Of a DNA stretch of 64,000 nucleotides, positions 7,870 to 62,347 are shown one piece after another. Made by a program: the position numbers and the translations under genes. Source of the DNA: Spirochaetales bacterium (GTDB lineage Bacteria > Spirochaetota > Spirochaetia > JABEVK01); NCBI GenBank assembly GCA_037142615.1, contig JBAXAI010000010.1, positions 32,001 to 96,000 on the forward strand. The letters are read 5' to 3'. Positions within the stretch are counted from its first letter, which is position 1. Every line of letters starts with the position of its first letter. The notes under the pieces are model-generated. The model saw nothing but the letters and a program-made list of their open reading frames with translations, had not been told where the DNA came from and ran no database searches.

Positions 7870-7917
7870 GGTTTCAAAATAACGCATTCGCGGCCACTTG
7901 CCCATCCGGGCAAAAGA

Positions 7918-45523: not shown

Positions 45524-45955
45524 ATGCTGATGGGTATTTCGCCGGTCATCGGACCGGAACTGCTGGATGTGCTGTTTCGCATGGGGCACGGCGACGAGAT
45601 CGTGCTGGCCGACGCTTTCTTTACCGGCGACTCGCTGGGCAAACGGGTCATCCGCGCCGACGGTCTGCGCATTCCCGATCTGTTGGACGGCATACTGCGA
45701 CTGATCAACCTCGACGACTTCGTCACCGACTCACTGGTGATCATGGACCCCGTGAAGGGTGACCATCTGGACCCGAACATGGAGAAGACCTACCGCGCGG
45801 CGATCGAAAAACACTGGCCCAAGGCCCCCGCCTTCACGCGGCTGGAGCGCTTCAAGTTCTACGACCGCTCGCGGGCCGCTTTTGCGGTGGTGATGACCGG
45901 CGAAACCGTCAAGTACGGCAACATCATTCTCAAGAAAGGCGTGATTCCCGTATGA
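45524..45955 (+). CDS. fucU: L-fucose mutarotase (RbsD/FucU)
   Basis: MGHGDEIVLADA, ERFKFY, TGETVKYGNIILKKGV. Confidence 0.92.
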   Translation: MLMGISPVIGPELLDVLFRMGHGDEIVLADAFFTGDSLGKRVIRADGLRIPDLLDGILRLINLDDFVTDSLVIMDPVKGDHLDPNMEKTYRAAIEKHWPKAPAFTRLERFKFYDRSRAAFAVVMTGETVKYGNIILKKGVIPV

Positions 45956-48745: not shown

Positions 48746-48747
48746 CC

Positions 48748-48893
48748 GTGCGTTGGCTTCAGAGCGTTGCGAGGACGGGTTCCGGCAAAGCCGTTGGCGA
48801 AGGTCGACCCGGAGCGTATCTGTGATACGTGAGGATTCGACCAAGCCGGCGGCGCAGCCGGAACCCGCCGCAGTAGCTCCGAAGCCAACACAC
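48748..48893 (+). repeat. ~146-bp palindromic repeat element (copy B)
   Basis: GTTGGCTTC/GAAGCCAAC, CGGGTTCCGGC/GCCGGAACCCG, GGTCGA/TCGACC, apical CGTATC-TGT-GATACG. Confidence 0.85.
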
Positions 48894-50390
48894 ATGGACC
48901 ACGTTTTGGCGATTGATCTAGGCGCTTCCGGAGGGCGCGTCATCCGCGGGACGTGGGACGCGTCGGCCGCAAAGCTGAAGCTCGAGGAAATCCACCGGTT
49001 CGCCAACGAGCCGGTGGAGGTTCTGGGCACCCTGCACTGGGACACCCTCCGGTTGTGGTTCGAGATTCAAAAAGGGGTCCGCGAAGCGGTGAGGACCCTC
49101 CCCAAGGGCGAACGTATCCGGTCGCTGGCCGTCGATACCTGGGGCGTCGATTTTGGTCTGCTCGATGCGCACGGCCGCTTGCTGGGAAACCCCGTACACT
49201 ACCGCGACAAGCGGACCGAAGGGCAGGTGGCCAAGCTGACGGCTCAATTTGGCGAGGGGGAGCTGTTCCGCCGGGCCGGCACGCAGGACGAGTGGTTCAA
49301 CACCATTGGTCAGCTTCGCGGCGCTTTGGAGCGCGACCCTCACTTCCTCGCAGGCGCCAAGGCTCTGCTGTTTTCGCCCGACCTGTTCAACTACTTCTTC
49401 TCGGGGCTTAAGGCCGCCGAAAGAACTATCGCGAGCACCTCGCAGCTGCTGCAAGCCGGCAAAACCAGTTGGGACAACGAGATCCTGGCCAAGCTGGGGG
49501 TTCCGGCGGGTCTGATGCAAGCGGTGCGCGAACCGGGAACGTTGCTGGGTCCGGTGTTGCCTGCCGTCGCCGCCGAACTCGGTCTGACCCCTGATACGCA
49601 GGTGGCCCTGGTTCCCAGCCACGATACCGAAAGCGCCGCCTTGGCGGTGCCCACGACTTCGGGCAAGCCCTTTGCCTTTATCAGCTGCGGCACGTGGGCC
49701 GTGCTCGGCGCCGAACTGTCTGCGCCCGTGACTTCCGAAGCCGCAAGGCTTGCCAAGTTTTCGAACGAGGCCGGGGCCTTCGGGACCAACCTGCTGCTGA
49801 GCAACATCATGGGCATGTGGCTGGTGCAGGAATGTAAACGCTGGTGGGAGCGCGACGGAAAGAAGTTTGGCCATGCCGAGCTCGTCGATTGGGCCGCCCA
49901 AGCTCCTTGGGGAGGAAGCCTGATCGATGTGAATGACCCCCTGTTTTCGACCCCCGGCGACATGCCAGGACGCCTCGTGGACTACTGCATGAAGAAGGGC
50001 CTACCGGTACCCGAGGGTCGCGGCGCGGTGGTCCGCTGTGTGCTCGAAAGTCTGGCTTGCGAGTTCCGCCGCAGTCTGGAGACCATGGAAAAGGTGACCG
50101 GTCAGGCGTTTGCCGAACTGTGGCTCGTCGGTGGCGGCTCGCAAAACCAACTGCTGTGCCAACTCACGGCCGACCTCACAGGCCGAACCGTGCTCACGGG
50201 GCCCATCGAGACCACCGCGCTGGGCAACATTGCGGCGCAGTTTGTGGCCTTGGGAACCTTCGGGTCGGCGAGGGAGGCCCGTCAGGCGGTTTCCAGCTCG
50301 TTTGGTGTGTCGCACTACGAACCGGGCAACCGCCTGTTGGCCGCCGACACGTACCGGCGGTGGTTGGCCGTTACTTCTTCGAATGGTTGA
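48894..50390 (+). CDS. RhaB-family FGGY kinase, probable L-fuculokinase
   Basis: AIDLGASGGR, DTWGVDF, HYRD, HDTESA, FSNEAG; follows fucI. Confidence 0.85.
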   Translation: MDHVLAIDLGASGGRVIRGTWDASAAKLKLEEIHRFANEPVEVLGTLHWDTLRLWFEIQKGVREAVRTLPKGERIRSLAVDTWGVDFGLLDAHGRLLGNPVHYRDKRTEGQVAKLTAQFGEGELFRRAGTQDEWFNTIGQLRGALERDPHFLAGAKALLFSPDLFNYFFSGLKAAERTIASTSQLLQAGKTSWDNEILAKLGVPAGLMQAVREPGTLLGPVLPAVAAELGLTPDTQVALVPSHDTESAALAVPTTSGKPFAFISCGTWAVLGAELSAPVTSEAARLAKFSNEAGAFGTNLLLSNIMGMWLVQECKRWWERDGKKFGHAELVDWAAQAPWGGSLIDVNDPLFSTPGDMPGRLVDYCMKKGLPVPEGRGAVVRCVLESLACEFRRSLETMEKVTGQAFAELWLVGGGSQNQLLCQLTADLTGRTVLTGPIETTALGNIAAQFVALGTFGSAREARQAVSSSFGVSHYEPGNRLLAADTYRRWLAVTSSNG

Positions 50391-50895
50391 CCGGAGGGAC
50401 TCCGATCTTCTCGGACAAGGCAAAAAGGACGGCAGTGACGACGAAGGTCATGTGAATGCCGACCATCCAGGCCAGGTGTTCCGTTGACCAGTCCTTCAGA
50501 TTCAGGAAAGCCCCCAAGAGGTTGATCCCTGACAACGCTACGATGGAGCCGATGAGCTTGAGCTTCAGGCCGGCGAAGTCCACCTCGCCCATCCAGGAAG
50601 GTCGATCCGGAGACTCGTCAGCAGCACCGATCTTCGAAACGAAGTTCTCGTAGCCACTGAAGATGACCAGGATCATGAGGTTGCCCAATAGTGTCATGTC
50701 GATGAGGCTGAGGATCCCCAGAAGCAAGTACGTCTGGTCCTTTTCGAGCACATTGAGGGCAAAGCGAAAGAACTCCTCGCCGAACTTGAACATCAGCAAC
50801 AGAAGGGCGAGGACGAGCCCCAGGTAGAAGGGAGCCAGCAGCCACCGACTGGCAAAGATCAATTTTTCCGTCGATTCCTCAATGAACTTGCGCAT
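50371..50895 (-). CDS. yqhA: UPF0114/TIGR00645 membrane protein
   Basis: IFASRWLLAPFYLGL, FSGYENFVSKI, LKLKL..SIVALS. Confidence 0.88.
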   Translation of the reverse strand: MRKFIEESTEKLIFASRWLLAPFYLGLVLALLLLMFKFGEEFFRFALNVLEKDQTYLLLGILSLIDMTLLGNLMILVIFSGYENFVSKIGAADESPDRPSWMGEVDFAGLKLKLIGSIVALSGINLLGAFLNLKDWSTEHLAWMVGIHMTFVVTAVLFALSEKIGVPPVNHSKK

Positions 50896-50972
50896 GGAAA
50901 CTCCTTAATTCGCACGATCAGACAGGAATTAAGGCTAGTGTGAGGATTGATAGATTGCAATGACCACTAAGT

Positions 50973-51788
50973 TTACACCCAGCGCTCCCGCAGCAATTCC
51001 ATCATGTGCACGTTGAGCTCCCACTGTTCGGCAACGGGTTGGGCCGTGTACGGGAGCGCCGGCATGTACGGCGCCGGGCCAAACTCGGGCGTCACGGTGA
51101 AGGTGGCAGCCCCGGCCTGCTGGTGACGTGTGAACACTTTGTCCCACCAAGTGAGGTGTGCCTCGACGGCCGGCTGCCACTCGGGAGCCCTGGGATCGCT
51201 CACCTGGGGGCCTTGGGCGTGACCCACCCGGGCGTGCAGGTGGTCGGTGCGTTCTATGGCCAGCGCCAGCGACTCGGCCTGGTCTTCAAGCAGCGATTCG
51301 GACACGTTGCACCAATGCGAAAAGTCGGCCGTGAGGCGCAGTTGCGGGTCGTCTCGCAAAAAACCGGCGGTGACGGCGGCCGCGTACGCGAACTTGGCCC
51401 TGTGGGTCTCGTGCACGATTTTGACACCGGTTTGAGCCGAAACCTCGGCCGCCACGTCGAGGATGCGGCGGTTGAGCTCGGCCGGGAACCAGTCCCTCCC
51501 CGTCTGCGAATTGATGAACAACGGCTTGGCGGCCGCAACCCACTCGAGGTGCGCCCGGTACTCGCGCAGGTGAGCCAGGGGGTCGGCCGTGGTCGTCTCC
51601 CAATGTTGGCCGATCAACTGTAGCCCCTGCGCTGCCAGCGCCCCGAGAATCTCCTCGGTGCCCTTGCGGTCGTCGAGCGGTAGGCTGCACTCGACCCCGT
51701 GGAAGCCCGCTTGGCGAACCTTGCGCGCAAAGTCTGCCCACGAAAGGCTTTCCGAGCCCCAGCGTGGGCAGAAGAACTGAAGTTCCAT
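50973..51788 (-). CDS. Sugar phosphate isomerase/epimerase-like TIM barrel (AP_endonuc_2)
   Basis: HETHR, TADFSHW, HLHARVG, TPEFGP metal-ligand pattern; starts 4 nt after the methyltransferase stop. Confidence 0.8.
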   Translation of the reverse strand: MELQFFCPRWGSESLSWADFARKVRQAGFHGVECSLPLDDRKGTEEILGALAAQGLQLIGQHWETTTADPLAHLREYRAHLEWVAAAKPLFINSQTGRDWFPAELNRRILDVAAEVSAQTGVKIVHETHRAKFAYAAAVTAGFLRDDPQLRLTADFSHWCNVSESLLEDQAESLALAIERTDHLHARVGHAQGPQVSDPRAPEWQPAVEAHLTWWDKVFTRHQQAGAATFTVTPEFGPAPYMPALPYTAQPVAEQWELNVHMMELLRERWV

Positions 51789-51792
51789 GGTG

Positions 51793-52869
51793 CTACTTCG
51801 ACCCGCAGCCGCAGGTGGTGAAGGCCATCACCTTGGCCATGATGGTCTTTTCGTAGCCCGGCATCGAGAGCACGTCGCATTCGCTGCCAATGATGAACGG
51901 GTGGCCCGAGGCTTTGAGTTTGCTTTCAATCTCGCACACCAGGTCGGGAATGCCGCTCAAGGGGACCTCTTCGTCGGAATAGAACTTCTTGGTAGGGAGG
52001 TTGCCGTACAGCACCGTCGTCTTGGGCACCAAGGGCTCGGCCTCCCACAGCTTGACCGGGCTGCCGAAGCTGATGATCACCGGGTCGAGCACCGCAAACG
52101 AGGCGATCATCTCGGGCGTGAGCGAGCCGCAGTCGTGGAAAATCAGGTCGGTGCCGTGCTGGTTGAACAACGCTTTGAGCCTCAGGTTGGGCTCGATGAC
52201 GAAGGTTTGGTACACGGTGCCACCCTCGGCAATCTGCTTGGGTGAAAAATACACGAGGTTGGCCGCGGGTTCGCACAAAAAGATGGCTTTGGCACCGGCC
52301 TTGATCTGCGCCAGCACGCAGGCGTGCACGGTCTTTTCGCACAGGTCCATCAGCGACGCCAGCAGCCCGACTTCGTCGTCGTCCTCGGGCGCGACACCAC
52401 TGCCCGCCATGTAGATGGGCGTGATGGGGTCTTTCATCAGCTTGGTCATCAGCGAGAACGGGCCGATGCTCATGCCGATGGGCACTTCCTTGCCCCCAGC
52501 CGCGAACGCCTTGGCAATCGCCGCCAGCGAGTCGCAGTTGGCCTTGATGCGCGGCGAGCCAAGCACATCCATGGCAGCCACCTTGGCCACCAACGCGGGG
52601 TCGGGCTTGTCGTGAAAATGGTAGGTGGGAATGGCGGCCGCCGCAACGCCCATGGTGCGCAGCATCACGTCTTTTTCGAGCGTGAGGTCCATGATGGGCA
52701 GCGCCAGCGGGCTATCGAAGCGGCGGGCGGTTTCGAGCATCACTTCGGCCAGGCGTTTGCCGTCGAGCAGAATGGCTTCGGGGTCCGATTTTTCGTGCAG
52801 GACGAGATGCGTCGCCACGGGCAACCGTTTTCCGGAAGCTGCGAGCGAGAGATAAAACGATCGGTCCAT
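51793..52869 (-). CDS. Uroporphyrinogen decarboxylase-fold corrinoid methyltransferase (MtaA/CmuA-like)
   Basis: GPFS, EPAA, Zn ligands FHDCG and SECD, LYGNL; follows the corrinoid protein. Confidence 0.8.
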   Translation of the reverse strand: MDRSFYLSLAASGKRLPVATHLVLHEKSDPEAILLDGKRLAEVMLETARRFDSPLALPIMDLTLEKDVMLRTMGVAAAAIPTYHFHDKPDPALVAKVAAMDVLGSPRIKANCDSLAAIAKAFAAGGKEVPIGMSIGPFSLMTKLMKDPITPIYMAGSGVAPEDDDEVGLLASLMDLCEKTVHACVLAQIKAGAKAIFLCEPAANLVYFSPKQIAEGGTVYQTFVIEPNLRLKALFNQHGTDLIFHDCGSLTPEMIASFAVLDPVIISFGSPVKLWEAEPLVPKTTVLYGNLPTKKFYSDEEVPLSGIPDLVCEIESKLKASGHPFIIGSECDVLSMPGYEKTIMAKVMAFTTCGCGSK

Positions 52870-52883
52870 GGGACGCTCCTTGG

Positions 52884-53516
52884 TCAGCTGACGAGTTCGA
52901 TGGCCTTGTCGCCAGCCGAAGCGGCGTCGGCCGTGTACGCGTCGGCTCCGATGCTGGCGCAGAAGCTGTCGGTGATGGGGGCACCACCGATCATCACCTT
53001 GACCTGCTTGCGCACGCCGGCGGCTTCGAGGGCTTCAATGACGGTCTTCATTTCGTTCATGGTGGTCGTCAACAGCGCCGAGAGCGCCACGATCTGGGGC
53101 TTGTGCTCGTGCACGGCAGCCACAAACTTTTCCGCCGAGACGTCGACGCCGAGGTCGATCACTTCGAGGCCTTTGCCTTCCATCATCATGCGCACCAGGT
53201 TCTTGCCGATGTCGTGCAGGTCGCCTTTGACGGTACCGAGAATCACCTTGCCGGTGGCTTTGACTCCGGCTGTCACCAAATAGGGCTTGAGCAGTGCGGT
53301 GCCCTGATTCATGGCGCGGGCGGCGATGAGCACTTCGGGCACGTAGACCTCGTTGCGCTTGAACTTGCCGCCGATGATGTTCATGCCGGCCATCAGGCCG
53401 TCTTCGAGAATGCTCTTGGCCGCAATGCCCTGGTCGATGGCCTGCTGCACCAGCTCTTTCACTTCTTTGGCTTTACCCTTCTGCAAGAAGGTGGAAATGT
53501 CGTCGAGAATTGCCAT
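52884..53516 (-). CDS. Corrinoid (B12-binding) protein, MtaC/MttC-like
   Basis: GDLHDIGKNLV (DxHxxG), SALLTTT, IGGAP; N-terminal four-helix cap. Confidence 0.95.
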   Translation of the reverse strand: MAILDDISTFLQKGKAKEVKELVQQAIDQGIAAKSILEDGLMAGMNIIGGKFKRNEVYVPEVLIAARAMNQGTALLKPYLVTAGVKATGKVILGTVKGDLHDIGKNLVRMMMEGKGLEVIDLGVDVSAEKFVAAVHEHKPQIVALSALLTTTMNEMKTVIEALEAAGVRKQVKVMIGGAPITDSFCASIGADAYTADAASAGDKAIELVS

Positions 53517-53551
53517 GCTATTCCTCCGTTTATCGTCCGTTTCTTCTGTTC

Positions 53552-53604
53552 AGCTTAAAGCAAGCGGTGACTGCCGTATTGCACTCCCTTACGCTTTTTG
53601 GGAC
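53552..53604 (-). promoter_or_regulatory. Putative PocR-AraC operator/promoter of the corrinoid protein operon
   Basis: GTCCCAA-N13-GTGCAA-N21-TAAGCT. Confidence 0.75.
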
Positions 53605-54863
53605 AAATTGCGGTTCGTGAGCCAGGCTGCCAGGCCCGCCGTAGGCAAGACCACAGCCCGGCTGCGGAGTTTCTGGTACGCCGCCAAGCCGGGGCCGCCG
53701 GTAAAGTCGCGCAGGGCCATGGGTTGGTCTTCCAAAAGGACCAGTTCGCGGGCTTCGGCGGCCGCCTCGAGGTTGCGCAGGTTTTGGGCACCGACCACCA
53801 GGTTGCCGACGATCACCAGGTCGGCCTCGCGCACCAAACGGCAGTTGTCGGCGTGGGCCGTGTCGGAAAGGGGTGAGAACGGCGGCGAGACCACGCTGAC
53901 CAAGTCGTAGACGCCGGCCACGTACAGGTCGCTGTCGCCGGGGCTGAGCACACCGGTCGACACCTGAAAGTCACCTTCGGCCAGCTCGCGAAGCACCGCC
54001 GAGGCCGCCCCGCCGCCGCCGATCACGTGGATGCGGGGTGCCGTGAGGCCGGGGTCGGTTCCCCTCAAGTGAAAATCGAACTGACCGGTGGCAGGATTGA
54101 CGTACACCCGCACCTGAACTCCGTAAGCCGCCTCGAGGTTACCCGGCGTGAAAACCTCACTGGGGGTCCCTTGAGCCAGGACTCGGCCTTCGGCCAACAG
54201 CACAACCCGGGTGCAATACCGTGCGGCCAACCGCAAATCGTGCACGGCTGCCACGATGGTTTTTCCTTCGGCGGCCAGAGTTTGCGCGTAGCGGAAGGTC
54301 TGCTGCTGGTGGCTCAGGTCGAGGCTCGCGCTGGGCTCATCGAGCAGCAGCACCGGCGTTTGCTGCGCCAGCACCTTGGCAAACAGCACGCGCTGGCGCT
54401 CGCCGCCCGACATCTGGTCGAGGGGCTGCAACGCCAGCGCCTCGGTCGCGGTGAACGCCATGGCCTGGGCCACCGCGCGGCGGTCGGCGGCCGACTCCGG
54501 GCGAAAACGGCCCTGGTGGGGGTAGCGGCCCATCATCACCACGTCGGCGGCCGGGAACGACGAGGTCAGCGCCGTGTCCTGGTGCATCAGCGCCACCCGT
54601 AGCGCGATCTCGCGCGGCGGCAGGCCTCGCTGGGCCTGTGAAGTCAAAGGTTGGCCGAACACCTCTACCTGTCCTTCGAAGGGGATCAAGCCCGCCAAAC
54701 ATCGCAACAGCGTCGACTTGCCCGCACCGTTGGGTCCCAGGATGCCCAGAATCTCGCCGGGGAACACCTGCAGGTCGAGCCCCCGCAACACGGGTTTGTC
54801 GCCTAGGGAGCAATGCAGCCCTTGCACCGAAAGCGCGGGGCTCGAGACGCCTCCGGCGCTCAC
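53589..54863 (-). CDS. btuD: Cobalamin ABC ATPase with C-terminal extension
   Basis: GPNGAGKST, MSGGERQRV, LLDEP, HDL; extra domain IHVIGGGG...GDSD; GTGA overlap. Confidence 0.85.
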   Translation of the reverse strand: MSAGGVSSPALSVQGLHCSLGDKPVLRGLDLQVFPGEILGILGPNGAGKSTLLRCLAGLIPFEGQVEVFGQPLTSQAQRGLPPREIALRVALMHQDTALTSSFPAADVVMMGRYPHQGRFRPESAADRRAVAQAMAFTATEALALQPLDQMSGGERQRVLFAKVLAQQTPVLLLDEPSASLDLSHQQQTFRYAQTLAAEGKTIVAAVHDLRLAARYCTRVVLLAEGRVLAQGTPSEVFTPGNLEAAYGVQVRVYVNPATGQFDFHLRGTDPGLTAPRIHVIGGGGAASAVLRELAEGDFQVSTGVLSPGDSDLYVAGVYDLVSVVSPPFSPLSDTAHADNCRLVREADLVIVGNLVVGAQNLRNLEAAAEARELVLLEDQPMALRDFTGGPGLAAYQKLRSRAVVLPTAGLAAWLTNRNLSQKA

Positions 54864-55900
54864 AGAGTCCCTCCGCGCCGCACACTGCGCAACAGCAAGA
54901 ACAGGAAGTACGGCGCTCCCACCAGCGCGGTCACAATGCCCACGTTGATCTCTTGCGCGCCCAGAGCCATGCGGGCCACGAGGTCGCAGATCACCAGAAA
55001 CGCCGCGCCGCCGAGCGCTGCCGCCGGGACGAGCAGACGATGATCGGGACCCAACAACAAGCGCAGAATGTGCGGCACGATGAGGCCGACAAAGCTGATC
55101 GGCCCGCTGATGCAAACCGCCGAGGCCGTCACCGCCGACACCAGAACCAGCAGAATCAGGCGGGTACGGAACACATCGACGCCAACGGCCTGCGCTTCCT
55201 CTTCGCCCAGCAGCAGAACGTTCAGGTCGCGGGTGAACCACAGCAGCGCAAATACCCCGGTGCCGATGGGCAGAATCACGAGCCCCAGCGATTCCCAGCG
55301 CACGTTGTACAGGTTGCCCATCGACCAAAAGAGGAACTGCGCGATGCTGTCATGGCTGGCAAACGTGAGCACCAGCGACGTGCCGGCCCCGAAAAATGTG
55401 CTCACCGCGATACCGGCCAAAATGAGGGTGAACAGGCCCATTTTGCCGGCCCGAATGGCCAACACAAAAATGATTCCGGCGGCGGTGAGCGAACCCAGCG
55501 ACGCAAACACCGGCAACGCCCACGCGCTGGTGGCGGCAACCCCGAGAGCAATGCTGAGCACAGCGCCAAAACCCGCGCCGCTGGACACACCGATGAGTCC
55601 CGGGTCGGCCAGAGGATTGCGCAACAGGCCCTGCATCACCGTCCCCGCGACCGCCAACGCAGCACCGATCACCACGGCCCCGAGCACGCGAGGCAGGCGC
55701 ACCAGAAAAATGATGGCGTCCCACTTCTGGTCGGGAGGCGGCAACCATCCGGCGGGAAAGCCCAGCCGCGCCAAGATCACCCCGGCCGTGTCGCCCAGCG
55801 GCACCGACACCGACCCGATGGCCGTCGCCACAAGCACCAGCCCCAACAACGCCAACGTCAGAGGAAGCAGAATCCACCACGCCAGGCGGGGGGTATTCAT
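54860..55900 (-). CDS. btuC: Cobalamin ABC permease (FecCD family)
   Basis: RLPR, QGLLRNPLADP, GEEEAQAVGV, FVGLIVPH. Confidence 0.88.
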   Translation of the reverse strand: MNTPRLAWWILLPLTLALLGLVLVATAIGSVSVPLGDTAGVILARLGFPAGWLPPPDQKWDAIIFLVRLPRVLGAVVIGAALAVAGTVMQGLLRNPLADPGLIGVSSGAGFGAVLSIALGVAATSAWALPVFASLGSLTAAGIIFVLAIRAGKMGLFTLILAGIAVSTFFGAGTSLVLTFASHDSIAQFLFWSMGNLYNVRWESLGLVILPIGTGVFALLWFTRDLNVLLLGEEEAQAVGVDVFRTRLILLVLVSAVTASAVCISGPISFVGLIVPHILRLLLGPDHRLLVPAAALGGAAFLVICDLVARMALGAQEINVGIVTALVGAPYFLFLLLRSVRRGGTL

Positions 55901-55913
55901 CGCGGTAGCGGGC

Positions 55914-56861
55914 CTAGCGGAACAGCGCCGGGTAGCCGGCTTTGGCCAGGTCTTCCACCGCGTCGGCCATGTACTGACTGGTCGACTGCAGGTGCTTGTC
56001 TTGCATCACCAGCACCCGTTTGTTCTTGACGGCCTTGAGCCCAGCAAACACGGGGTCGGCCACAAAGTCGGCCAGAAACTTGGCCGCATCGCTGCTGCCG
56101 TCGTAGCTCCAGCTGGGCAACAGGATCACGTCGGGGTCGAGGGCCAACACCTGCTCTTTGCTCACCTGAGGCCAGCCGGACAGGCCAGCCTTGGTGGCGA
56201 CGTTCACCAGCCCGGCTTTTTCGATCAAAGCCTCAAAGCTGGTCCCTTTGGCGTAGGTGCTGCCCCAGAAGCTGTAACTGAGCACGGTGGGTTTGGCGGC
56301 GACGCCCTTGAGCTTGGTGGCCACTGCTGCCAGACGTTTTTCCACCGTGGCAAGCAAGGCCTTTCCCTTGGCGGTTTCACCGGTGACGGCCGCCATCTGG
56401 GTGACGAGCGTGGTCAGCTCGTCGAAATTGTCGGGCGTTTTGAACACGAACACCGGGATTTTGGCCTCGCGCAGGGCAGCGATGAACTCGGGTTCCTTCC
56501 AACTGGCCACGAACACGAGGTCGGGCTGCAACGCGATGATCTTTTCTTTTTCGCCGGCGATTTTGGTGGGAAAGGCCTTGGCCCAGGCAGCGATGTTGGA
56601 AATGCCCGCGTCGGTGGCGAAACTGTCGATGGCCTTGATGCGGCTCTGGTCGACCAGTTCGATGAGGATTTCGTCGGTGGGCAACGTGAGCGAAATGATG
56701 GCCTTGGGAGCGGCGGACAAGGTGATGGCCGTGCCTTGCGCATCCTTGAGCGTGAGCGGGAAAACCTTGTCGGTCGCCCCGGTGCCGGCGGCATTGAGGC
56801 CGACAAGGGTTGTGAGCAGCAGGGACGACAACGCGACCCGGCGCAACAGGTGAGAACTCAT
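55914..56861 (-). CDS. btuF: Cobalamin ABC substrate-binding protein
   Basis: Peripla_BP_2 (TDEIL, EKIIALQPDLV, KEQVLALDPDVI, LKAVKNKRV); downstream of a B12 riboswitch. Confidence 0.88.
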   Translation of the reverse strand: MSSHLLRRVALSSLLLTTLVGLNAAGTGATDKVFPLTLKDAQGTAITLSAAPKAIISLTLPTDEILIELVDQSRIKAIDSFATDAGISNIAAWAKAFPTKIAGEKEKIIALQPDLVFVASWKEPEFIAALREAKIPVFVFKTPDNFDELTTLVTQMAAVTGETAKGKALLATVEKRLAAVATKLKGVAAKPTVLSYSFWGSTYAKGTSFEALIEKAGLVNVATKAGLSGWPQVSKEQVLALDPDVILLPSWSYDGSSDAAKFLADFVADPVFAGLKAVKNKRVLVMQDKHLQSTSQYMADAVEDLAKAGYPALFR

Positions 56862-56870
56862 GGTGAAACT

Positions 56871-56970
56871 CCTATCTCTCGTAGGTTTTCAGTACGGCAC
56901 CGAGGTGAGCGACCTGGCTTTACAGTGGCGGGACCGCGCGGGATTTTCACCCGCTTCCCTCTGCCTCGGC
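56871..56970 (-). ncRNA. Cobalamin riboswitch (compact, class II-like)
   Basis: Minus strand: AGGGAA-GCGGG-TGAAAAT-CCCGC-GCGGTCCCGCCACTGT-AA-AGCCAG; P1 GCCGAGG/CCTCGGT; downstream hairpin CCTA-CGAGAGA-TAGG overlaps the SD. Confidence 0.88.
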
Positions 56971-56988
56971 TGTCTGTCAACACTGTCC

Positions 56989-57041
56989 ATTCAAGCGCAT
57001 TTCGGCGGTGCGTTCTAGCAAAAACCGGGGAATCTTGGGAT
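56989..57041 (-). promoter_or_regulatory. Putative PocR-AraC operator/promoter of btuFCD
   Basis: ATCCCAA-N13-TTGCTA-N21-TTGAAT, same spacing as the other two sites. Confidence 0.6.
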
Positions 57042-57123
57042 TATTGCATCAGGATACGGCACGTGAACGTCACACTTGCCATGGTATCTTGCTCTGGTGA
57101 GGGGGGGGGAGTATCATGACAAT

Positions 57124-57306
57124 ATGGCAACCATGACTGGCATCCAGGTACCTCCCCCTCCAATTCCTAGCAAGGAAGAGAAACATCAGATGACCCTAGA
57201 AGCCCTGAAGAGCATTGACGAGGGTCGAGTGTCCACCGACAAGGAAGCTTCGGCCTGGCTCAGAAGCCTAGGTACCGCCAATCCTCTTCCACGCCCTCAC
57301 AAATGA
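57124..57306 (+). CDS. ParD/CopG-type antitoxin (C-terminal part, no RHH recognisable)
   Basis: TLEALKSIDEGRV...AWLRSLGTANPLPRP; promoter TTGCTC-N17-TATCAT-N6-ATG. Confidence 0.7.
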   Translation: MATMTGIQVPPPPIPSKEEKHQMTLEALKSIDEGRVSTDKEASAWLRSLGTANPLPRPHK

Positions 57307-57512
57307 GCGTTATCTGGTCCAATGAGTCCCTCGAGGATATGGAGCGGATTTACGAGTTTCACGCCGAGTTCAGCGTTCACGTCGCCAGGCGTGTCGTAGC
57401 GATGATCCGAAGAGCAACCAAGTTGCCAACTGTGTTTCCGCAAGTCGGCCGCCCGTGTGATCGGTACATCCCCAGAGACGTCCGGGTCTGGCCTTCCAAA
57501 GAAGACCGCTGA
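57303..57512 (+). pseudogene. Truncated RelE/ParE toxin
   Basis: VIWSNESLEDMERIYEF...FPQVGRP; stops at 69 aa without the C-terminal YR/H strands. Confidence 0.65.
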
Positions 57513-57594
57513 GCTACGGCATCCAAACCTTCTTGGCCCAGCGGGTGCCCTTCGGCCCTCAGGCAACGAAAACTACACTGGCAGTACGGAATTG

Positions 57595-58140
57595 TCAAAT
57601 GCTTTGCGGGAAGTGAGTTAGCAGACAACTCGTGAACGTCACCGTGAGAGAGCCATGGTTGTAGGGGATGCCGTTGGCCTCGCACACTTGGCTGACGAAC
57701 AGCCCGTAAGCCTCCATCGACACGATGGCCTTATCGGGAAAACGGCATGGTTCCGCCGGGCACGGACATTCGGCGCAAAGCGTGCAGGCCCCGGCGCCCA
57801 TGGGCAAACAGTGGGGTACCGTTCCACGCACGTCGCCCACCAACTGGTGAAACCGTTGGTTGTGCAGGGCTTGCGCCGCCTCCATGGACTCGTAGTCGAA
57901 GTCGTCATCAAGCTTGCCGACCGTTTGCACCAGAATGCCCCGCTCGAAGGCAGCCACCTTCCGGGTAGACTCGTCGAGCGTGCCGCAATGGGGCGGGCAG
58001 GTCCAGTTTTTGCCATAGCTGCGGCAGGTGTTGGCGGCGCACATGGAGCGCACCTCGGGCAGAAACTTGAGCGTGGCGACGCTTAGTTCGCCGGCGTCTT
58101 CGAAGCCGTGGTCGCGGGCGAGTTGCAAAAGGGCGGTCAT
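57595..58140 (-). CDS. DUF2284 Cys-rich metal-binding protein
   Basis: C..N.C..YGKNWTCPP, GAGACTLCAEC, CRFP, SMEAYG. Confidence 0.85.
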   Translation of the reverse strand: MTALLQLARDHGFEDAGELSVATLKFLPEVRSMCAANTCRSYGKNWTCPPHCGTLDESTRKVAAFERGILVQTVGKLDDDFDYESMEAAQALHNQRFHQLVGDVRGTVPHCLPMGAGACTLCAECPCPAEPCRFPDKAIVSMEAYGLFVSQVCEANGIPYNHGSLTVTFTSCLLTHFPQSI

Positions 58141-58454
58141 TCCTTGCTGATCCGCATCACCACGTCCTTGGGGAGCGCGAGGACGCAAGCCACTTCGATG
58201 CCTTTGAGGATGGCTGCCGGGACGGGGCAGGCGGCGTGGTGGCAGTGAAGCCTCGCCGCCTTGGCCACCGTCGAACTACCCCATTTGCCGAGCACTTCGG
58301 TATAGCCATCGAGTTCCTGCAGGTCGGCCTCCATGGCCTTAATGGCCTCGCAGTCGGAGGTGAGGCTGACTTTGACCTGCAGGTCGTCATCGGCGACGGC
58401 CGTGATTTCGGTGGTGAACCCGCAGATTCCAGGTTCAACGTGCACGTGTGCCAT
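58137..58454 (-). CDS. DUF6951 family protein
   Basis: PGICGF, SDC, HCHHAACPVPAAILKGIEVA..LALP. Confidence 0.75.
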   Translation of the reverse strand: MAHVHVEPGICGFTTEITAVADDDLQVKVSLTSDCEAIKAMEADLQELDGYTEVLGKWGSSTVAKAARLHCHHAACPVPAAILKGIEVACVLALPKDVVMRISKE

Positions 58455-58465
58455 GGACTTCTCCT

Positions 58466-59668
58466 TTACGACCCACCGGCTTGTTGGTTTCCCGCTTGCC
58501 GGAACTTGCCCGGCGACTGGCCGGTGACTTTCTTGAACACCCGGTTGAAGTAGCTTTGGTCCTCAAACCCGACCAGACCCGCGACGACCACCAAGGGGAT
58601 GGAGCGGTCGGCCAGCAGGCGTTTGCTTTTTTCGATGCGCACGTCGCTCAAAAAGGCGACAAAACTGGTCTTGAGCTCTTCTTTGAACACCCGGCTGAAA
58701 TAGCTGGGGCTCAGGTACACCTGCGCGGCCACCGCTTCGAGCGACAGTTTTTGCGCGTAGTTCAGCCGGATGTAGCGCACGGCCTTCTGGATGATGTCGG
58801 CGTGCTTGACGGCCTTGAGCACGAACATGCAGTCGGCGAAGCGGCGCACCACGCGCGCCAAAATGGTCTCGAGGTCATCGATGCTGCGGGCCAACTGAAG
58901 GCGCTGCATCCAGTTCTCGCTGATACCGAACACCTCTTCGGCCGACGCGCCGCCCTCGACCGCCGCCCGAGAAAGCAACACCAGCAACTCTTGCGCCCGC
59001 AGGCGCACGGTGGCGATCTTTTGACCTGAGAAGAAGAACACGTGGCCCAAAATGTCGTTCACCAGCGCGCGGGCTTCGTCGTGGTTGCCGTTCGAAAGCA
59101 GAGCGATGAGCTCTTTTTCTTTTTCGAACGGGTACGTGGGCGGAAGTTCGGCGCCGGTGTCGGGGTACCAACTGGTGGGCCTTTGCAACGGCTGGGGCTC
59201 GGCTTCGGGCGCCAGTCGGTGGCGCAGTTCGGCCACCAGGCGGTAGAGCACCTCGGCGAGCGCCGTCGCACGCGCGGGCTGCAGGTAGGGAACCAGACGC
59301 AGCTCGTCTTCCAACTGATCCAACCCTTTGAGCTTGAGGTCGGTAAGCATTTCCTCGGGTTCCAGCAGCAGAACTGGGCCGCCAACCACCACCGCTTGGA
59401 CTTCGGCGTTCACAGTCAACGGTATAGACCAATGGAGCAAATTGTTGGGGCAAAAGTAGATGTACTTGCCACCGAAGCGCTCGGCCTGGTAGGCGCCGTA
59501 CTGGTGGGCCTTGCTGCACTCCGACCGGTGCCCGGGCAGAGCGTGCTGCATAGCGCGGCAAAACCGGCACCCCCCCGCTTGGCCGAGCTGGTCCTTGTCA
59601 AACACTTGGCAGTCGACGCCGCAGGCTTCGCGGTAACTGCGAACCAGGTTCTCCAGTTCAGTCGTCAT
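58466..59668 (-). CDS. PocR ligand-binding domain + AraC HTH regulator
   Basis: CRFC...C...YFCPNNL...VVGGPVL (PocR cysteines); YLSPSYFSRVFK, GFEDQSYFNRVFKK. Confidence 0.9.
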   Translation of the reverse strand: MTTELENLVRSYREACGVDCQVFDKDQLGQAGGCRFCRAMQHALPGHRSECSKAHQYGAYQAERFGGKYIYFCPNNLLHWSIPLTVNAEVQAVVVGGPVLLLEPEEMLTDLKLKGLDQLEDELRLVPYLQPARATALAEVLYRLVAELRHRLAPEAEPQPLQRPTSWYPDTGAELPPTYPFEKEKELIALLSNGNHDEARALVNDILGHVFFFSGQKIATVRLRAQELLVLLSRAAVEGGASAEEVFGISENWMQRLQLARSIDDLETILARVVRRFADCMFVLKAVKHADIIQKAVRYIRLNYAQKLSLEAVAAQVYLSPSYFSRVFKEELKTSFVAFLSDVRIEKSKRLLADRSIPLVVVAGLVGFEDQSYFNRVFKKVTGQSPGKFRQAGNQQAGGS

Positions 59669-61247
59669 CACCGGGATCCTCCGGGAACAGCATAGCCTCG
59701 GCGAAAGCCATTTGGAACTCGGGTTCGGCCGAAAGATCGACGGCGGCGGTGGCCTTGGCAATGGCCAGGGCCCGGTCGAGGGCCAGCGGCTCTGCAAGTA
59801 CAGCGAGCGCTCCCTTGAGCGCGGTGTTGCCCGAGGGCACCACTTTCCCCCGAAGGGCTTGCGGAAGCAGACCAATGGCAAGCGCCGACGCCGGCCGCAA
59901 AAAGGTTCCAAAGCCGCCAGCCAGGTGCACGCGCGAAATCTGCTCCAGGGCGACGGCGCTCTTGAGGCACAGAACTTCGATGCCGGCGGCGATGGCCCCC
60001 TTGGCCAGCTGCAGCTGACGGATATCGGCCTGGCTGAGGCACACCGGCGAGGCGGCGTCGGGGAAGAAATCGTCGCCTTCAGCCAGCTCCAGATACCCGG
60101 TTTCGTCGAGTTGGCCGCCCCGACGGAGGGCGGCCGCCAGGTCGAGCAGGCCCGAGCCGCAGATGCCGGTCAGGGGCTTGTCGCCAATCGTGGTGTACCA
60201 AAACTCGCCGGCCGTATCACCGGTGGCCGAGGTCCAGCCCGCATGGTCGAGCGCTCCGGGTACGCCGGGACAGCCGTGGGCAATCTGCGCGCCTTCGAAG
60301 GCCGGGCCGGCGGCGGTGGCTGTGGACTTCATTCCGTGGCGGTTGCCGAGCACCATTTCGCCGTTGGTACCGATATCGAGCAGCAGCTCCAACTCTTCGG
60401 CCTGGTCGAGCCCGGTGGCAAGCACCCCGGCCGTGAGGTCGGCCCCCACAAACGCCGAAATGCCGGGCAGAAGTTGCACGGTGCAAGTGGCAGGAAGCGC
60501 AAGGCCCAACGACGGAGCAGGCGTGACTCTCGGCTCCAGAAACACCGGCCGGAAGGGAACCCTGGCCATGCCCGTGGGATCGGCCCCGGCGAACAGGTGT
60601 AGCATCACGGTGTTGCCCGCGACCACGATCCCATCGAGCTCCGAAGGCATGCGCCCGGCGGCGTCGAGCTGCTCGGTGATCAAGTTTTGGATCTGCCCCG
60701 CGACCGCGCGACGCATGGCCTCGAGGGCCTCGGGGTGATCGATCACCGACTGGATGCGCGCCACCACGTCGGAACCCCAGGTTTTTTGGGCGTTGGCGGC
60801 GGTGCGCACCGAAAGCACCCGGCTGGCGGCCACATCGACCAGGGCGACTGCCAGGGTGGTGGTACCGATATCGACCGCCACGCTCAGCGGTCGGCCCGAA
60901 GTTTGGGCGGCGGCACGCAGCGCCGGGTCAACGTCAATCGTCAACTGCTCCTGCGGCACGGCGATGCCGTCGTCCCCCGCAGCCAGTTCCACCCACCCTT
61001 CATGCTCAAAACGCGCCAAGCACGCCAAACGCACACCGCGAGCCCGCTCGACCTCGCTCAGGTGACGCAGTTCCAGCGGGTCCGCGAGGCTCAACGGCGA
61101 GGCAGCGACCGCGGAAGAGGGACAGACCTCGACGCGGCACTTGCCGCACGAGCCTCGGCCCGCGCAGGGAGCCCTCAAAGCGTGATCGTTCCCCCGAAGC
61201 ACTTCGAGGAGGGTCTGGCCGGCCTGGCCGTGGACGCGAAGGTTCAT
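59658..61247 (-). CDS. Reductive activator of corrinoid enzymes (RACE/RACo, ASKHA ATPase with 2Fe-2S domain)
   Basis: CAGRGSCGKC...RLAC, DIGTTT, GSDVVARI, FVGAD, DIGTNGE, AGPAFEG, GICGSG, LAGGFG. Confidence 0.93.
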   Translation of the reverse strand: MNLRVHGQAGQTLLEVLRGNDHALRAPCAGRGSCGKCRVEVCPSSAVAASPLSLADPLELRHLSEVERARGVRLACLARFEHEGWVELAAGDDGIAVPQEQLTIDVDPALRAAAQTSGRPLSVAVDIGTTTLAVALVDVAASRVLSVRTAANAQKTWGSDVVARIQSVIDHPEALEAMRRAVAGQIQNLITEQLDAAGRMPSELDGIVVAGNTVMLHLFAGADPTGMARVPFRPVFLEPRVTPAPSLGLALPATCTVQLLPGISAFVGADLTAGVLATGLDQAEELELLLDIGTNGEMVLGNRHGMKSTATAAGPAFEGAQIAHGCPGVPGALDHAGWTSATGDTAGEFWYTTIGDKPLTGICGSGLLDLAAALRRGGQLDETGYLELAEGDDFFPDAASPVCLSQADIRQLQLAKGAIAAGIEVLCLKSAVALEQISRVHLAGGFGTFLRPASALAIGLLPQALRGKVVPSGNTALKGALAVLAEPLALDRALAIAKATAAVDLSAEPEFQMAFAEAMLFPEDPGDDD

Positions 61248-61253
61248 CGTCAC

Positions 61254-61306
61254 AGCCTAGCGCCCGCCGCGCGGACTGTCTTGCACATTGGCTTTATTCT
61301 TGGGAC
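61254..61306 (-). promoter_or_regulatory. Putative PocR-AraC operator/promoter of the RACE operon
   Basis: GTCCCAA-N13-GTGCAA-N21-TAGGCT-N6-ATG. Confidence 0.75.
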
Positions 61307-62313
61307 TTTTCGGGCAAGGTCGGCACGTAGATGTAGCCCGGATCGGTTTTCTGTTTTTTGCGGATTTCGAACAAGAGCCTCAGCCCGGCCCAGAGGCTTT
61401 TCTGGCTCGGGGGCAGATCGTAGGCAATGGCCCGGTGCAGCTTACCCTCGTTGTAGCACGGGACGGCCGCGTACATGTGGTGCGCGGTGTGATAGTTCAT
61501 GTTCCAGTACAACCATCGGGTGATGGGGCCACCGGTGAACGAATGGCACACCAGCCGCCAGTCGGGGGTGCTGTCGCCCAGACCGGTGTGCTGCATGGCC
61601 CCGCAGAGTTTGCCGTACCAGCTGGCAAAGAACACCCCAAAGGTCACCAGGTAGATGAGCACCCAGAGTTGAAAGTAAATGAAGACTCCCAGCAGGATCA
61701 GATGGCTGAGCAGCATGAATCTCGCCCACCCCACCATTTGCCCTCGGCGCTTGTCGCCCTTCTCAAACAGGGGATTCCAAAAGAAGTAGTCCGCGTCGGC
61801 TTTACCGAAGGTGTGCATCACCGCCAAACCGAACCACGACCGAAACTGAGTCCAGTCAAAGGTGAACCACTGCAGCAGGTTCCAGAAGTTCAGTTTGTCT
61901 TTCACCGGGCCCTGCACGACTTCCTTGTCGGGGTCCTTGAACACCGTCAGTTGGTGATGCAGCCCGTGGCTGGCGCGAAAGTGGACGGGGTTGTTCCAGG
62001 TCATCCAGCAGAACAAATGGTAGAAAAATTCGTTCAGGGCCTTGGTCTTGAACATGGTGCCGTGGCTGAGTTCGTGAACCCCGGCGGCCATGCTGAAGAA
62101 CATGAGGAAGGTCGAGTGGACGTAGCAGGCGACGACCATGGGCACCCACATCTGATTGACAAAGAAATAGAGCGCAGCCGATATCGTGACGACCCAGCCC
62201 AGCAGAAAGCTCAGCGTCTTGCGTAGCCCCTTGAAGTCGCTCTTGGTGGCCAGCTCCTTGAGCAGCGCCTTGTCGACCGGAGTCCGGTACCACTCGATTT
62301 TTTTGGGATCCAT
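61294..62313 (-). CDS. Membrane di-iron oxygenase, fatty-acid-desaturase superfamily, MocD (rhizopine oxygenase)-like
   Basis: His boxes HELSH, HGLHH, QH, NYHTAHH; WYRTPV...SD N-terminus and LYWNMNYH resemble MocD. Confidence 0.8.
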   Translation of the reverse strand: MDPKKIEWYRTPVDKALLKELATKSDFKGLRKTLSFLLGWVVTISAALYFFVNQMWVPMVVACYVHSTFLMFFSMAAGVHELSHGTMFKTKALNEFFYHLFCWMTWNNPVHFRASHGLHHQLTVFKDPDKEVVQGPVKDKLNFWNLLQWFTFDWTQFRSWFGLAVMHTFGKADADYFFWNPLFEKGDKRRGQMVGWARFMLLSHLILLGVFIYFQLWVLIYLVTFGVFFASWYGKLCGAMQHTGLGDSTPDWRLVCHSFTGGPITRWLYWNMNYHTAHHMYAAVPCYNEGKLHRAIAYDLPPSQKSLWAGLRLLFEIRKKQKTDPGYIYVPTLPEKSQE

Positions 62314-62347
62314 GTTGATTCTCCTTCTTGAACCAAGGCTCTCGCCT

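Follow-up and report, generated by a model that had tools for sequence, protein, structure and literature searches.

A UroD-fold methyltransferase beside a single corrinoid protein may serve as the shared unloading enzyme of a corrinoid methyl-transfer hub in a Spirochaetales bacterium

In known corrinoid-dependent methyl-transfer systems a variable donor enzyme is combined with a shared corrinoid protein (CP) and a shared second methyltransferase (PMC13391211, PMC12478193). The bacterial three-component systems, including Odm/Vdm/Mtv/Mto, the MtaABC of acetogens and Cdm (chloromethane), follow a common logic of a first methyltransferase (MT1), a CP, a second methyltransferase (MT2) and an ATP-dependent activase; their MT1 enzymes belong to the UroD superfamily (PMC13222342, PMC8630106), and a single CP and a single MT2 can serve many MT1 paralogues (PMC13391211). 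Here we describe a gene cluster of related logic from a Spirochaetales bacterium, found in a window of 64,000 nucleotides (contig C10:32001-96000) of a 4.27-Mb genome in 76 contigs (completeness 96.7%, contamination 2.2%). The cluster encodes B12 uptake, a CP, an activase and, directly beside the CP, a UroD-fold methyltransferase, hereafter MT. A previous interpretation of the same DNA, the sequence-only reading, had cast MT as an enzyme that demethylates O-methyl sugars. We favor another reading, to which we assign a probability of roughly 0.55: the region would be a shared corrinoid methyl-transfer hub whose generic unloading enzyme is MT and whose donors act on methanol and on sugar-linked substrates.

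The region resembles the MtaB-MtaC-MtaA system of Methanosarcina in its CP, composed of a cap and a Rossmann domain, in the HxC...C UroD-fold partner beside the CP, and in an MtaB homologue on the same contig. In contrast to that system, MT is only 15-16% identical to MtaA by structural alignment and scores below the cut-offs of the MtbA/MtaA models, the MtaB gene lies 27 kb from that of the CP, the activase is of the bacterial RACE type, ComA was not found, and the host is a sugar-fermenting bacterium. The MT2 of bacterial three-component systems is pterin-binding or MtrH-like and methylates tetrahydrofolate (THF) or tetrahydromethanopterin; no such enzyme was found in this genome, nor was a Wood-Ljungdahl pathway. 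Unlike the genes of the aryl O-demethylases, which are placed beside aromatic-compound transporters, the candidate MT1 genes here occur in sugar and glycan operons. The type 1 mlp clusters (Kountz and Balskus preprint, PMC10418091) likewise combine UroD-family MtaA-like genes with a CP and RACE, carry the His-Cys-Cys motif and have no THF methyltransferase in non-methanogens, but their neighbors are sulfur and selenium genes, whereas here they are genes for B12 uptake, sugars and methanol. By definition such clusters contain at least Mlp2 and Mlp3, each about 30% (over 25%) identical to coenzyme M (CoM) methyltransferases, with a CP and RACE (PMC10418091); our cluster holds one far more distant MT and no Mlp2/Mlp3 pair, and was rejected as a member of this type. 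The MtgBCD or split MetH hub of Ruegeria and Phaeobacter (PMC12478193, 10.1101/192971) shares with the present system one stand-alone CP, a RamA-like activase, DUF1638 (in the MT loci of other phyla) and several donor enzymes served through one common second methyltransferase; there, however, the pterin-binding MtgD fills the common role and MttB-family proteins that act on betaines are the donors, whereas here the common enzyme has the UroD fold and the donors would be MtaB and UroD paralogues. What differs from known three-component systems is the UroD-fold common methyltransferase, of a new family, the hosts without CoM genes and the acetyl-CoA pathway, and the candidate donors in glycan operons.

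A model of MT, computed from an alignment of 28 homologues, has the UroD-type (β/α)8 fold with a pLDDT of 93.5 and a pTM of 0.92. Foldseek placed this model equally far from true UroD and Methanosarcina MtaA (TM-scores of 0.63-0.69, 15-18% identity), and found the MtaA entries 4AY7 and 4AY8 at E values near 1e-9, no nearer than true UroD. Among NCBIfam models MT comes closest to methylcobamide:CoM methyltransferases, with 29.3 bits where the cut-offs are 244 (PRK06252) and 600 (MtbA); searches of solved structures with MT alone and with an MT profile returned only marginal UroD/MtaA matches (E 0.003-0.08) and no close solved relative. Among 8000 candidates scored, 2397 relatives had E ≤ 0.001, the best 120 listed being 52-100% identical to MT, and across phyla the family is 47-89% identical. 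In 28 homologues the residues H245, D246, C247 and G248 (FHDCG) and E330, C331 and D332 (SECD) are invariant. Judged from the sequence and compared by the zinc-ligand numbering of MtaA, which we take to apply, these residues form the H-x-C ... C motif of the CoM methyltransferases. MT is thus best described, on this motif and its distant matches, as a deep, uncharacterized UroD-superfamily branch whose metal motif is of the thiol type, and is probably zinc-dependent. A genuine uroporphyrinogen decarboxylase was excluded by the conserved Cys/His motifs, the adjacency to the CP and the methyltransferases among the best NCBIfam matches. The His-Cys-Cys motif has been read as a mark of methyltransferases acting on sulfur or selenium, with the cysteines replaced in O-demethylases (PMC10418091). 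For MT the motif points to a thiol, sulfide or selenide as acceptor; THF would be conceivable. MT also ends in a Cys-Gly-Cys tail (TTCGCGSK; window 51793-51820, minus strand), and a C-x-C near the end recurs in many, not all, homologues; it may be an extra metal or redox site.

The CP has a DxHxxG motif that reads D-L-H-D-I-G, of which D99, H101 and G104 are invariant in 18 homologues. It is the sole stand-alone corrinoid protein detected genome-wide, PF02310 matching only the CP and a 1250-aa MetH-like frame, and RACE, whose domain set is that of the reductive activases of three-component systems, is likewise present in a single detected copy (one PF14574 match). The genome holds seven UroD-family genes, one MtaB and one MttB-like gene. 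No MT1 was recognized at 50973-61306; the candidate MT1 genes (MtaB, the UroD paralogues and the MttB-like gene) lie outside it. One CP and one RACE thus face several UroD, MtaB and MttB-like genes, that is, one hub facing many candidate donor enzymes.

The usual exits for the methyl group were searched for genome-wide. The pterin-binding family PF00809 matched only a 298-aa frame and the 1250-aa MetH-like frame, with no stand-alone pterin-binding MT2; MtrH (PF02007) and CdhC/ACS had no matches, the latter excluding an acetogenic methyl sink, and one MTHFR is present. ComA (PF02679), of CoM synthesis, also had no matches in a search confined to this route, and CoM is an unlikely acceptor for MT on that basis. 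A canonical MtaA-like gene was not found by tblastn with an MtaA-like query from another MT locus (L024). The observation that the window contains neither a pterin-binding enzyme nor a Wood-Ljungdahl gene therefore holds and extends to the genome at the level of these families. In two MT-carrying Betaproteobacteria (G004, G012) pterin domains are similarly confined to one short frame (296-348 aa) and one of MetH length each. The sequence-only reading was thus right to see a corrinoid methyl-transfer module, with CP, RACE and MT, that lacks its usual THF-methylating partner. Because the shared element here is MT and the usual pterin-binding or MtrH enzyme was not found, we infer an MT2 role for MT. 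On the reading we prefer, BtuFCD, under riboswitch control, would supply the corrinoid; the single CP would act as the common methyl carrier; and RACE, probably with DUF6951 and DUF2284 and under PocR-AraC, would keep the cobalt of the CP as Co(I). Donor enzymes encoded elsewhere would load the CP, MtaB from methanol and the UroD paralogues with a distinct motif ("O-class", described below), together with the MttB-like protein, from sugar-linked substrates. MT would then unload methyl-CP, standing in for the pterin-binding MT2, and hand the methyl on to a soft nucleophile, for example sulfide or a small thiol.

To see what accompanies MT elsewhere, we fetched 12 loci from species genomes (Spirochaetes, Treponemataceae, Burkholderiales, Propionivibrio, Rhodocyclaceae, Lentisphaerae, Alphaproteobacteria, Bryobacteraceae and Methylomirabilota) and the best 80 of 520 metagenome relatives. 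Merging near-identical loci left 84 non-redundant ones (L numbers below), 56 of which have at least 4 kb of flank. They were searched by tblastn with the window proteins and by Pfam on open reading frames (ORFs) called by a crude GC-frame script, which can miss genes; the Pfam annotation covers all but eight long ORFs (L037:12956-15523, L039:2519-4903, L081:4919-7231, L096:13078-15822, L100:4636-8310, L100:11815-14367, L055:2767-5211 and L055:5316-7796). In the 56 well-flanked loci the neighbors are CP (32), DUF1638 (25), RACE (24), another UroD (21), PocR (14) and MtaB (12), with sugar-type neighbors at lower counts: a CUT2 transporter in 9, RhaM in 4, the xylose-isomerase-like TIM barrel (TIM) in 2 and FucI in 1. 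Within 300 nt of MT in all 84 loci, DUF1638 occurs 20 times, CP 19, MtaB 7, PocR 3 and RACE 2, against once each for TIM and FucI and never for RhaM. The order DUF1638-RACE-PocR-CP-MT-MtaB is found in L058, L097 and L103, CP-MtaB-RACE-PocR-MT-DUF1638 in L039 and L044, and MtaB-CP-MT-DUF1638 in L053, while in L014 MT stands alongside an MttB-family gene and a betaine-type transporter. Since its usual neighbors are CP, RACE, DUF1638, PocR and MtaB, and TIM is near it in 3 of the 84 loci, we read MT as a generic CP partner; it behaves as a core partner of the CP and activation machinery that is paired with varied donors (MtaB, MttB-like proteins, other UroDs). In two loci (L058:7119-8315 and L097:12400-13593) a DUF6580 gene (PF20221) lies downstream of CP-MT-MtaB; a short CobW-like GTPase gene precedes it in L058, and a CobW gene stands beside MtaB in L016. 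The CobW-like and DUF6580 proteins may be a metal chaperone and a transporter component of the system.

These neighborhoods bear most directly on the proposal that MT is itself an O-methyl-sugar:corrinoid MT1 and that TIM converts the freed sugar for entry into the rhamnose and fucose pathways. As had been noted, 4 nt separate the stop of MT from the start of TIM, and the adjacency recurs in L028, where TIM is 67% identical; in L029, CP, MT, FucI and a UroD gene form one string; carbohydrate genes (GH5, GH20, GH31, GH42, AraA, PfkB-FucU, sugar transporters) occur in many MT loci; and the invariant acidic residues of MT (D61, E65, D241, D246, E330 and D332) would suit sugar hydroxyls. However, FucI is found in a single locus of the 84, the conservation of MT across phyla better fits one small conserved substrate, and L039, L044, L058, L097 and L103 carry MT, MtaB, CP, RACE and PocR without CUT2, RhaM, FucI or TIM, albeit with a GH5 gene close by in L058. 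It is the variable UroD paralogues, not MT, that adjoin sugar transporters, the His-Cys-Cys motif is tied to sulfur and selenium substrates (PMC10418091), and the genome would be left with no candidate for unloading the CP except a reverse MtaB. We therefore consider this proposal unlikely, and the pairing of MT as sugar demethylase with TIM as its partner is probably wrong. The expectation that MT would associate with sugar genes was borne out in part, in that RhaM, CUT2 and FucI recur in some loci, but the main neighbors are those of methyl transfer and often no sugar gene is present. The other two loci with a TIM homologue (L016, L024) have it about 3 kb from MT, beside CobT, and we treat TIM as a lineage-specific add-on; its Atlas structure matches, at TM-scores of 0.97-0.98, clusters annotated as 'sugar phosphate isomerase/epimerase' and bearing PF01261.

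The MtaB homologue lies outside the window, at C10:113006-114379 and 27 kb beyond (downstream of) MT (PF12176, E 1e-155). It aligns over its full length with Methanosarcina barkeri MtaB (2I2X_A, residues 3-452, E 7e-78), with Glu, Cys and Cys at positions 164, 220 and 269, which we take to be the zinc ligands; against the NCBIfam methanogen equivalog it scores 394 bits, under the cut-off of 720. Its identity of 82-83% to the MtaB of two Betaproteobacteria suggests lateral spread. This homologue, which the sequence-only reading could not see, makes methanol a likely methyl donor. MtaB occurs in 13 of the 84 MT loci, and in 6 of 12 other MT-carrying genomes versus 1 of 14 control genomes. A system for methanol only, for instance methanol from pectin, would consist of MtaB, CP and MT, and the UroD genes in sugar operons would then be unrelated to the CP. 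The presence of MtaB in 7 of 13 MT genomes (the present one counted) and in those 13 loci fits such a system, as do the full-length match of our own MtaB to 2I2X_A with its presumed zinc ligands conserved, and the PocR domain of the regulator, a domain that binds small alcohols or diols. Against it, MtaB was not found in 6 of the 12 MT genomes, nor in the Spirochaetota genomes G068, G246 and G266; the paralogues track RACE in 23 of 24 genomes and stand directly beside the CP in L017, L035, L060 and L080; and the model of the CP with one of them, UroD_c, passes with a score of 0.74 versus 0.00 for the best control. Methanol alone is accordingly an improbable account of the region.

Two further roles for MT were weighed against the lack of a known exit. 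In a methyl-ether 'hydrolase' relay, donors would load the CP and MtaB, running in reverse, would release methanol, with MT as a donor-side enzyme for a conserved small substrate. The genome does lack every known THF or CoM exit searched for, MtaB and MT are adjacent (within 300 nt) in 7 of 84 loci, and the MtaB reaction is said, after Sauer and Thauer, to be close to equilibrium. A thioether substrate, as the Cys-rich motif of MT suggests, would make transfer to water uphill by general thermodynamics, however, half of the MT genomes yielded no MtaB, and we know of no precedent for physiological reversal of MtaB; we regard the relay as very unlikely. Alternatively, MT could supply methionine as a methylcobamide:homocysteine methyltransferase working with a stand-alone CP. 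Split MetH systems share the stand-alone CP, the RamA-like activase and DUF1638 (10.1101/192971, PMC12478193), the UroD and MetE barrels are related (MetE entries appear in Foldseek at E 1e-4 to 1e-3), and MT has a thiol-type motif. The genome already encodes the full-length 1250-aa MetH-like frame, though, catabolic methyl amounts exceed what methionine can absorb, and MT matches PF01208 and no homocysteine S-methyltransferase or MetE family from Pfam or NCBIfam, which makes this role highly improbable.

On the preferred reading of a shared hub, the sugar link would come through the donors. Each of the genome's six other UroD-like paralogues, like its MttB-like gene, is part of a sugar or glycan locus. 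UroD_b, on the same contig as MT but outside the window, sits in a RhaM-UroD_b-ATPase-permease-permease-binding protein string (a CUT2 sugar transporter); UroD_c adjoins genes for an FA_hydroxylase, an AraC protein and a LacI-UroD fusion of 752 aa (UroD_d); UroD_C3 is near AraC, a sugar ABC transporter and GH88; UroD_C56 is near LacI and glucuronate isomerase; and the MttB-like gene and UroD_C7 share a string of binding protein, permeases, GH4, GH38, the pair itself, GH20 and a GH63-like gene. In the pair (L107:8470-10809, contig C7) the MttB-superfamily gene is divergent (PF06253, E 4e-24); it and its UroD-like neighbor stand between the GH38 alpha-mannosidase and GH20/GH63-like genes, and the string looks like a mannoside utilization operon. 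The fusion (L012:11073-13331, plus strand; C10:107073-109331) joins a LacI-family repressor, with its helix-turn-helix and sugar-binding domains, to a C-terminal UroD-like domain that has alanine in place of the motif cysteine (HSAG), and it is kept in L027:1644-3740 and L041:1431-3539 (698 and 702 aa). Possibly a dead methyltransferase domain here serves a transcription factor as its sensor.

Aligned to MT, the paralogues carry the motif H-[STGA]-C-G ... x-H-x, in which His replaces the second cysteine (the O-class; UroD_b HGCG/SDHS, UroD_c HTCG/PVHN, L017 type HSCG/PSHE), and their best NCBIfam matches are the MtaA/CmuA models, not HemE. UroD_c belongs to a large family: 7957 of 8000 candidates scored matched it at E ≤ 0.001, the best 120 listed are all at least 65% identical, and the source names among the matches listed include Verrucomicrobiota, Rectinemataceae and Sumerlaeia. 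Of 301 Spirochaetota genomes sampled, 24 hold UroD_c-like genes (E ≤ 1e-40); RACE is present in 23 of these (the miss being G018) versus 87 of all 301. Around MT and CP clusters of other phyla, RhaM, CUT2 transporters, FucI, FucU, AraA and glycoside hydrolases recur, in arrangements such as LacI-RhaM-CUT2 transporter-UroD-CP-RACE-DUF1638-MT (L017), UroD_c / RACE-DUF1638-CP-MT-FucI-UroD-FA_desaturase (L029), sugar-binding protein-UroD-CP-RACE-DUF1638-MT (L035), PfkB-FucU-UroD-DUF1638-MT (L046), CP-UroD-MT with AraA alongside (L060) and sugar transporter-CP-MT-SSF-UroD (L104).

The modeled CP-UroD_c complex attained a mark that 116 of 157 solved complexes also attain, as do 2 of 215 mismatched pairs; its three runs agree in at least 96% of contacts, and the partner has a pLDDT of at least 93. 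The interface joins the DxHxxG (cobalt-ligand) loop of the CP, residues 97-104, to the barrel face of UroD_c at residues 265-272 and 392-394, which adjoin the conserved D261/D262 and H389. The model supports binding of the CP to UroD_c. From the context of their genes we infer sugar methyl ethers as the substrates of the paralogues. O-methyl sugars are common in the cell walls of plants, mosses and algae, and the only sugar demethylation route known to us needs oxygen (cytochrome P450). In marine Bacteroidota such a P450 reportedly demethylates 6-O-methyl-D-galactose so that the sugar enters catabolism; the reaction is oxygen-dependent and forms formaldehyde, and the proteins are unrelated to corrinoid systems. 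In contrast, the system described here would need no oxygen and would pass on an intact methyl group. More specifically, the O-class paralogues might cleave sugar methyl ethers in the absence of O2 and pass the methyl group by way of the shared CP and MT to sulfide or a small thiol, with methylated rhamnose, fucose, mannose and glucuronate from plant, moss and algal glycans as substrates; we offer this fuller scheme tentatively and judge the odds to be against it. The literature searched, subscription journals being outside our coverage, gave no account of corrinoid-dependent sugar demethylation, of the MT family or of DUF6951; the sequence-only reading, too, knew of no characterized corrinoid sugar demethylase. 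The idea that methyl removal is tied to sugar catabolism thus survives in a changed form: the paralogues in sugar loci, their co-occurrence with RACE and the CP-UroD_c model make corrinoid sugar demethylation plausible through the paralogues, whereas MT itself is unlikely to be the demethylase.

Several observations weigh against the hub as we draw it. The MT2 role is argued from gene position and the elimination of alternatives, and we know of no UroD-family enzyme that unloads methyl-CP in bacteria without CoM. In 22 of the 56 well-flanked loci neither CP nor RACE is present in the fetched DNA, and in L024, L083, L088 and L104 a canonical MtaA-like gene (HxCGN...GCE) stands beside MtaB in addition to MT, so that MT is not the sole MT2 candidate there. 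The MT-carrying Spirochaetota G068, G246 and G266 each have one MeTr-like pterin protein, and no MtaB was found in them (0 of 5 genomes searched there). Support from the co-occurrence with RACE is overstated by the count, since 14 of the 24 UroD_c-carrying genomes belong to one family and kin genomes are not independent. This family, f16, is the richest in UroD paralogues, and MT was found in 0 of its 14 genomes; the paralogues therefore do not need MT. On the supporting side, stand-alone pterin-binding genes of 266-289 aa number two or three in all five f16 genomes checked. In every case one adjoins RACE, and in G090 one is also beside a UroD_c-like gene; between f16 and the MT carriers, one kind of MT2 looks to have been replaced by another. 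The score of the CP-UroD_c model may come in part from general likeness to solved methyltransferase-corrinoid complexes. Finally, no promoter-like site was found in the 72-nt gap between btuD and the CP gene (scan of 50200-62600), and CP, MT and TIM, lying downstream of btuFCD behind the riboswitch, would be expected to be off at high B12, which is odd for a B12-using system. As an observation on f16 in its own right, UroD_c-like genes occur in 14 of its 14 sampled genomes (e.g. G135, G163, G071), with 11-82 first-look candidates each, an expansion that resembles the MT1 expansions of known demethylating anaerobes.

The genes that the sequence-only reading had listed at 50973-61306 were all found by Pfam and NCBIfam on the minus strand (Table 1). 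They form part of two minus-strand gene strings that run from 62394 down to 50371. String 1 consists of the FA_desaturase gene, RACE, PocR-AraC, DUF6951 and DUF2284; after a gap of 610 nt, string 2 begins with the riboswitch, btuF, btuC and btuD, and btuD is followed at 72 nt by the CP gene, at 14 nt by MT, at 4 nt by TIM and at 77 nt by the UPF0114 gene, whose membership in the module is uncertain. Rhamnose and fucose genes are nearby, as described before: RhaA (29972-31243) and class II aldolases for rhamnose, and PfkB (45952-46950), FucI (46943-48745) and an FGGY kinase (48672-50390) for fucose. The fucose genes, on the plus strand and convergent with the cluster, therefore form a separate transcription unit.

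Table 1. Features of the corrinoid cluster and the evidence for each (positions within the window).
Feature	Positions	Strand	Evidence
FA_desaturase-family di-iron membrane protein, just upstream of RACE	61294..62394	-	Pfam FA_desaturase, E 3e-28
RACE/RamA-like ATP-dependent reductive activase of corrinoid proteins	59658..61253	-	Pfam Fer2, Raco_middle (E 1e-46) and RACo_C_ter (E 4e-60)
PocR-sensor AraC-family regulator	58466..59668	-	Pfam PocR (E 3e-20), HTH_18 and HTH_AraC; ORF open to 59911
DUF6951 small protein	58137..58454	-	Pfam PF22263, E 4e-34
DUF2284 predicted metal-binding protein	57595..58140	-	Pfam PF10050, E 6e-46; ORF open to 58188
Adenosylcobalamin (AdoCbl) riboswitch	56861..56985	-	RF01482, 50.8 bits against gathering score of 50 (narrow margin), E 2.3e-6 over the window, full model 1-149
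BtuF-like periplasmic corrinoid-binding protein	55914..56861	-	Pfam Peripla_BP_2, E 3e-27
BtuC-like permease	54860..55900	-	Pfam FecCD, E 2.5e-91; best NCBIfam BtuC, 300 bits, below cut-off of 461
BtuD-like ATPase	53589..54863	-	Pfam ABC_tran; best NCBIfam 'corrinoid ABC transporter ATPase', 343 bits, below cut-off of 537
Stand-alone corrinoid protein (CP), cap and Rossmann B12 domain	52884..53516	-	Pfam B12-binding (E 2e-28) and B12-binding_2 (E 3e-20)
UroD-fold methyltransferase (MT)	51793..52869	-	PF01208, E 4.6e-14; N-terminus MDRSFYLSLA
Xylose-isomerase-like TIM barrel (TIM)	50973..51788	-	Pfam AP_endonuc_2 (PF01261), 30.0 bits, under cut-off of 31.1
UPF0114 membrane protein	50371..50895	-	Pfam PF03350, E 6e-35; TIGR00645, 161 bits (cut-off 144)

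In string 1, RACE scores 294 bits against the NCBIfam AcsV-like model, under its cut-off of 800. The likely start of PocR-AraC is the ATG at 59668, which has a GGAGG before it and overlaps the RACE stop, and homologues of the regulator occur in the 14 well-flanked MT loci counted above. Given that small alcohols or diols are ligands of PocR domains, one may speculate that the signal is methanol or the 1,2-propanediol formed when rhamnose and fucose are fermented. The DUF2284 gene likely starts at ATG 58140, with a 4-nt overlap with the DUF6951 stop, and DUF6951 may be an accessory of the activase. DUF1638, the usual accessory in other MT loci, had no match in this genome by tblastn with two queries; DUF2284 and DUF6951 are found near RACE here, where other loci have DUF1638, a genetic companion of RamA-like activases (10.1101/192971, PMC12478193). 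Elsewhere DUF2284 directly follows MT in L027 and L041 and adjoins RACE in L051. The FA_desaturase-family gene is possibly linked to the module, and a 29% identical homologue closes the CP-MT-FucI-UroD cluster in L029. Di-iron membrane enzymes (FA_desaturase, FA_hydroxylase) recur beside sugar transporter, RhaM and UroD genes, namely at 61294-62394 (minus strand) in the window and at L012:8811-9806 (minus strand), L016:2776-5181, L013:12166-13200, L027:4063-5046 and L029:8964-10109, and one Burkholderiales locus has the hydroxylase as a fusion with Rieske and NAD-binding reductase domains; these enzymes may represent an oxygen-dependent path to the same demethylation.

In string 2, the last hairpin of the riboswitch (56861-56900, minus strand) contains the AGGAG that precedes the btuF ATG, and the match ends on the A of that ATG; because the 3' hairpin holds this AGGAG, control of btuF is probably at translation and not at transcription. 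BtuF has a 65% identical orthologue in L013 with the same gene order, and the BtuFCD-CP-MT order is present in the closest relatives, L013 and L050. The likely start of BtuD is the GTG at 54863, which follows a GGAGG. Scanning the region for promoters and terminators gave 2 promoter-like sites versus 1.7 expected and 12 terminator-like sites versus 13.6 expected, counts so near expectation that the scan is uninformative; one of the promoter-like sites lies just upstream of the riboswitch (57067-57040, minus strand). Elsewhere in the window, which has a G+C content of 57-66%, a 1471-aa ORF (3490-7905, minus strand) probably encodes a large surface protein, unrelated to the B12 module: it combines repeats of FlgD Ig-like and other Ig-like domains with an OmpA domain at its C-terminus. 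The stretch was found in metagenome DNA from freshwater and lake water (20 rows from 10 studies), with at least half of its words in 5; no RNA data set is listed as containing it.

MT is, independently of the sugar question, an uncharacterized and horizontally spread partner of MtaB and CP in bacteria without CoM or the Wood-Ljungdahl pathway, and the identity of its methyl acceptor is a well-defined question for bench work. If the paralogues are corrinoid methyltransferases, the very large 'uroporphyrinogen decarboxylase family' would acquire a function, some of the need of glycan degraders for B12 would be accounted for, and anoxic freshwater would have a new C1 source in the form of methanol, methanethiol or methyl-THF. 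That reading of the paralogues would bear on how anaerobes handle O-methyl sugars and, should the O-class enzymes act with MT as MT2, would link the breakdown of glycans in anoxic waters to the formation of methanethiol or methanol.

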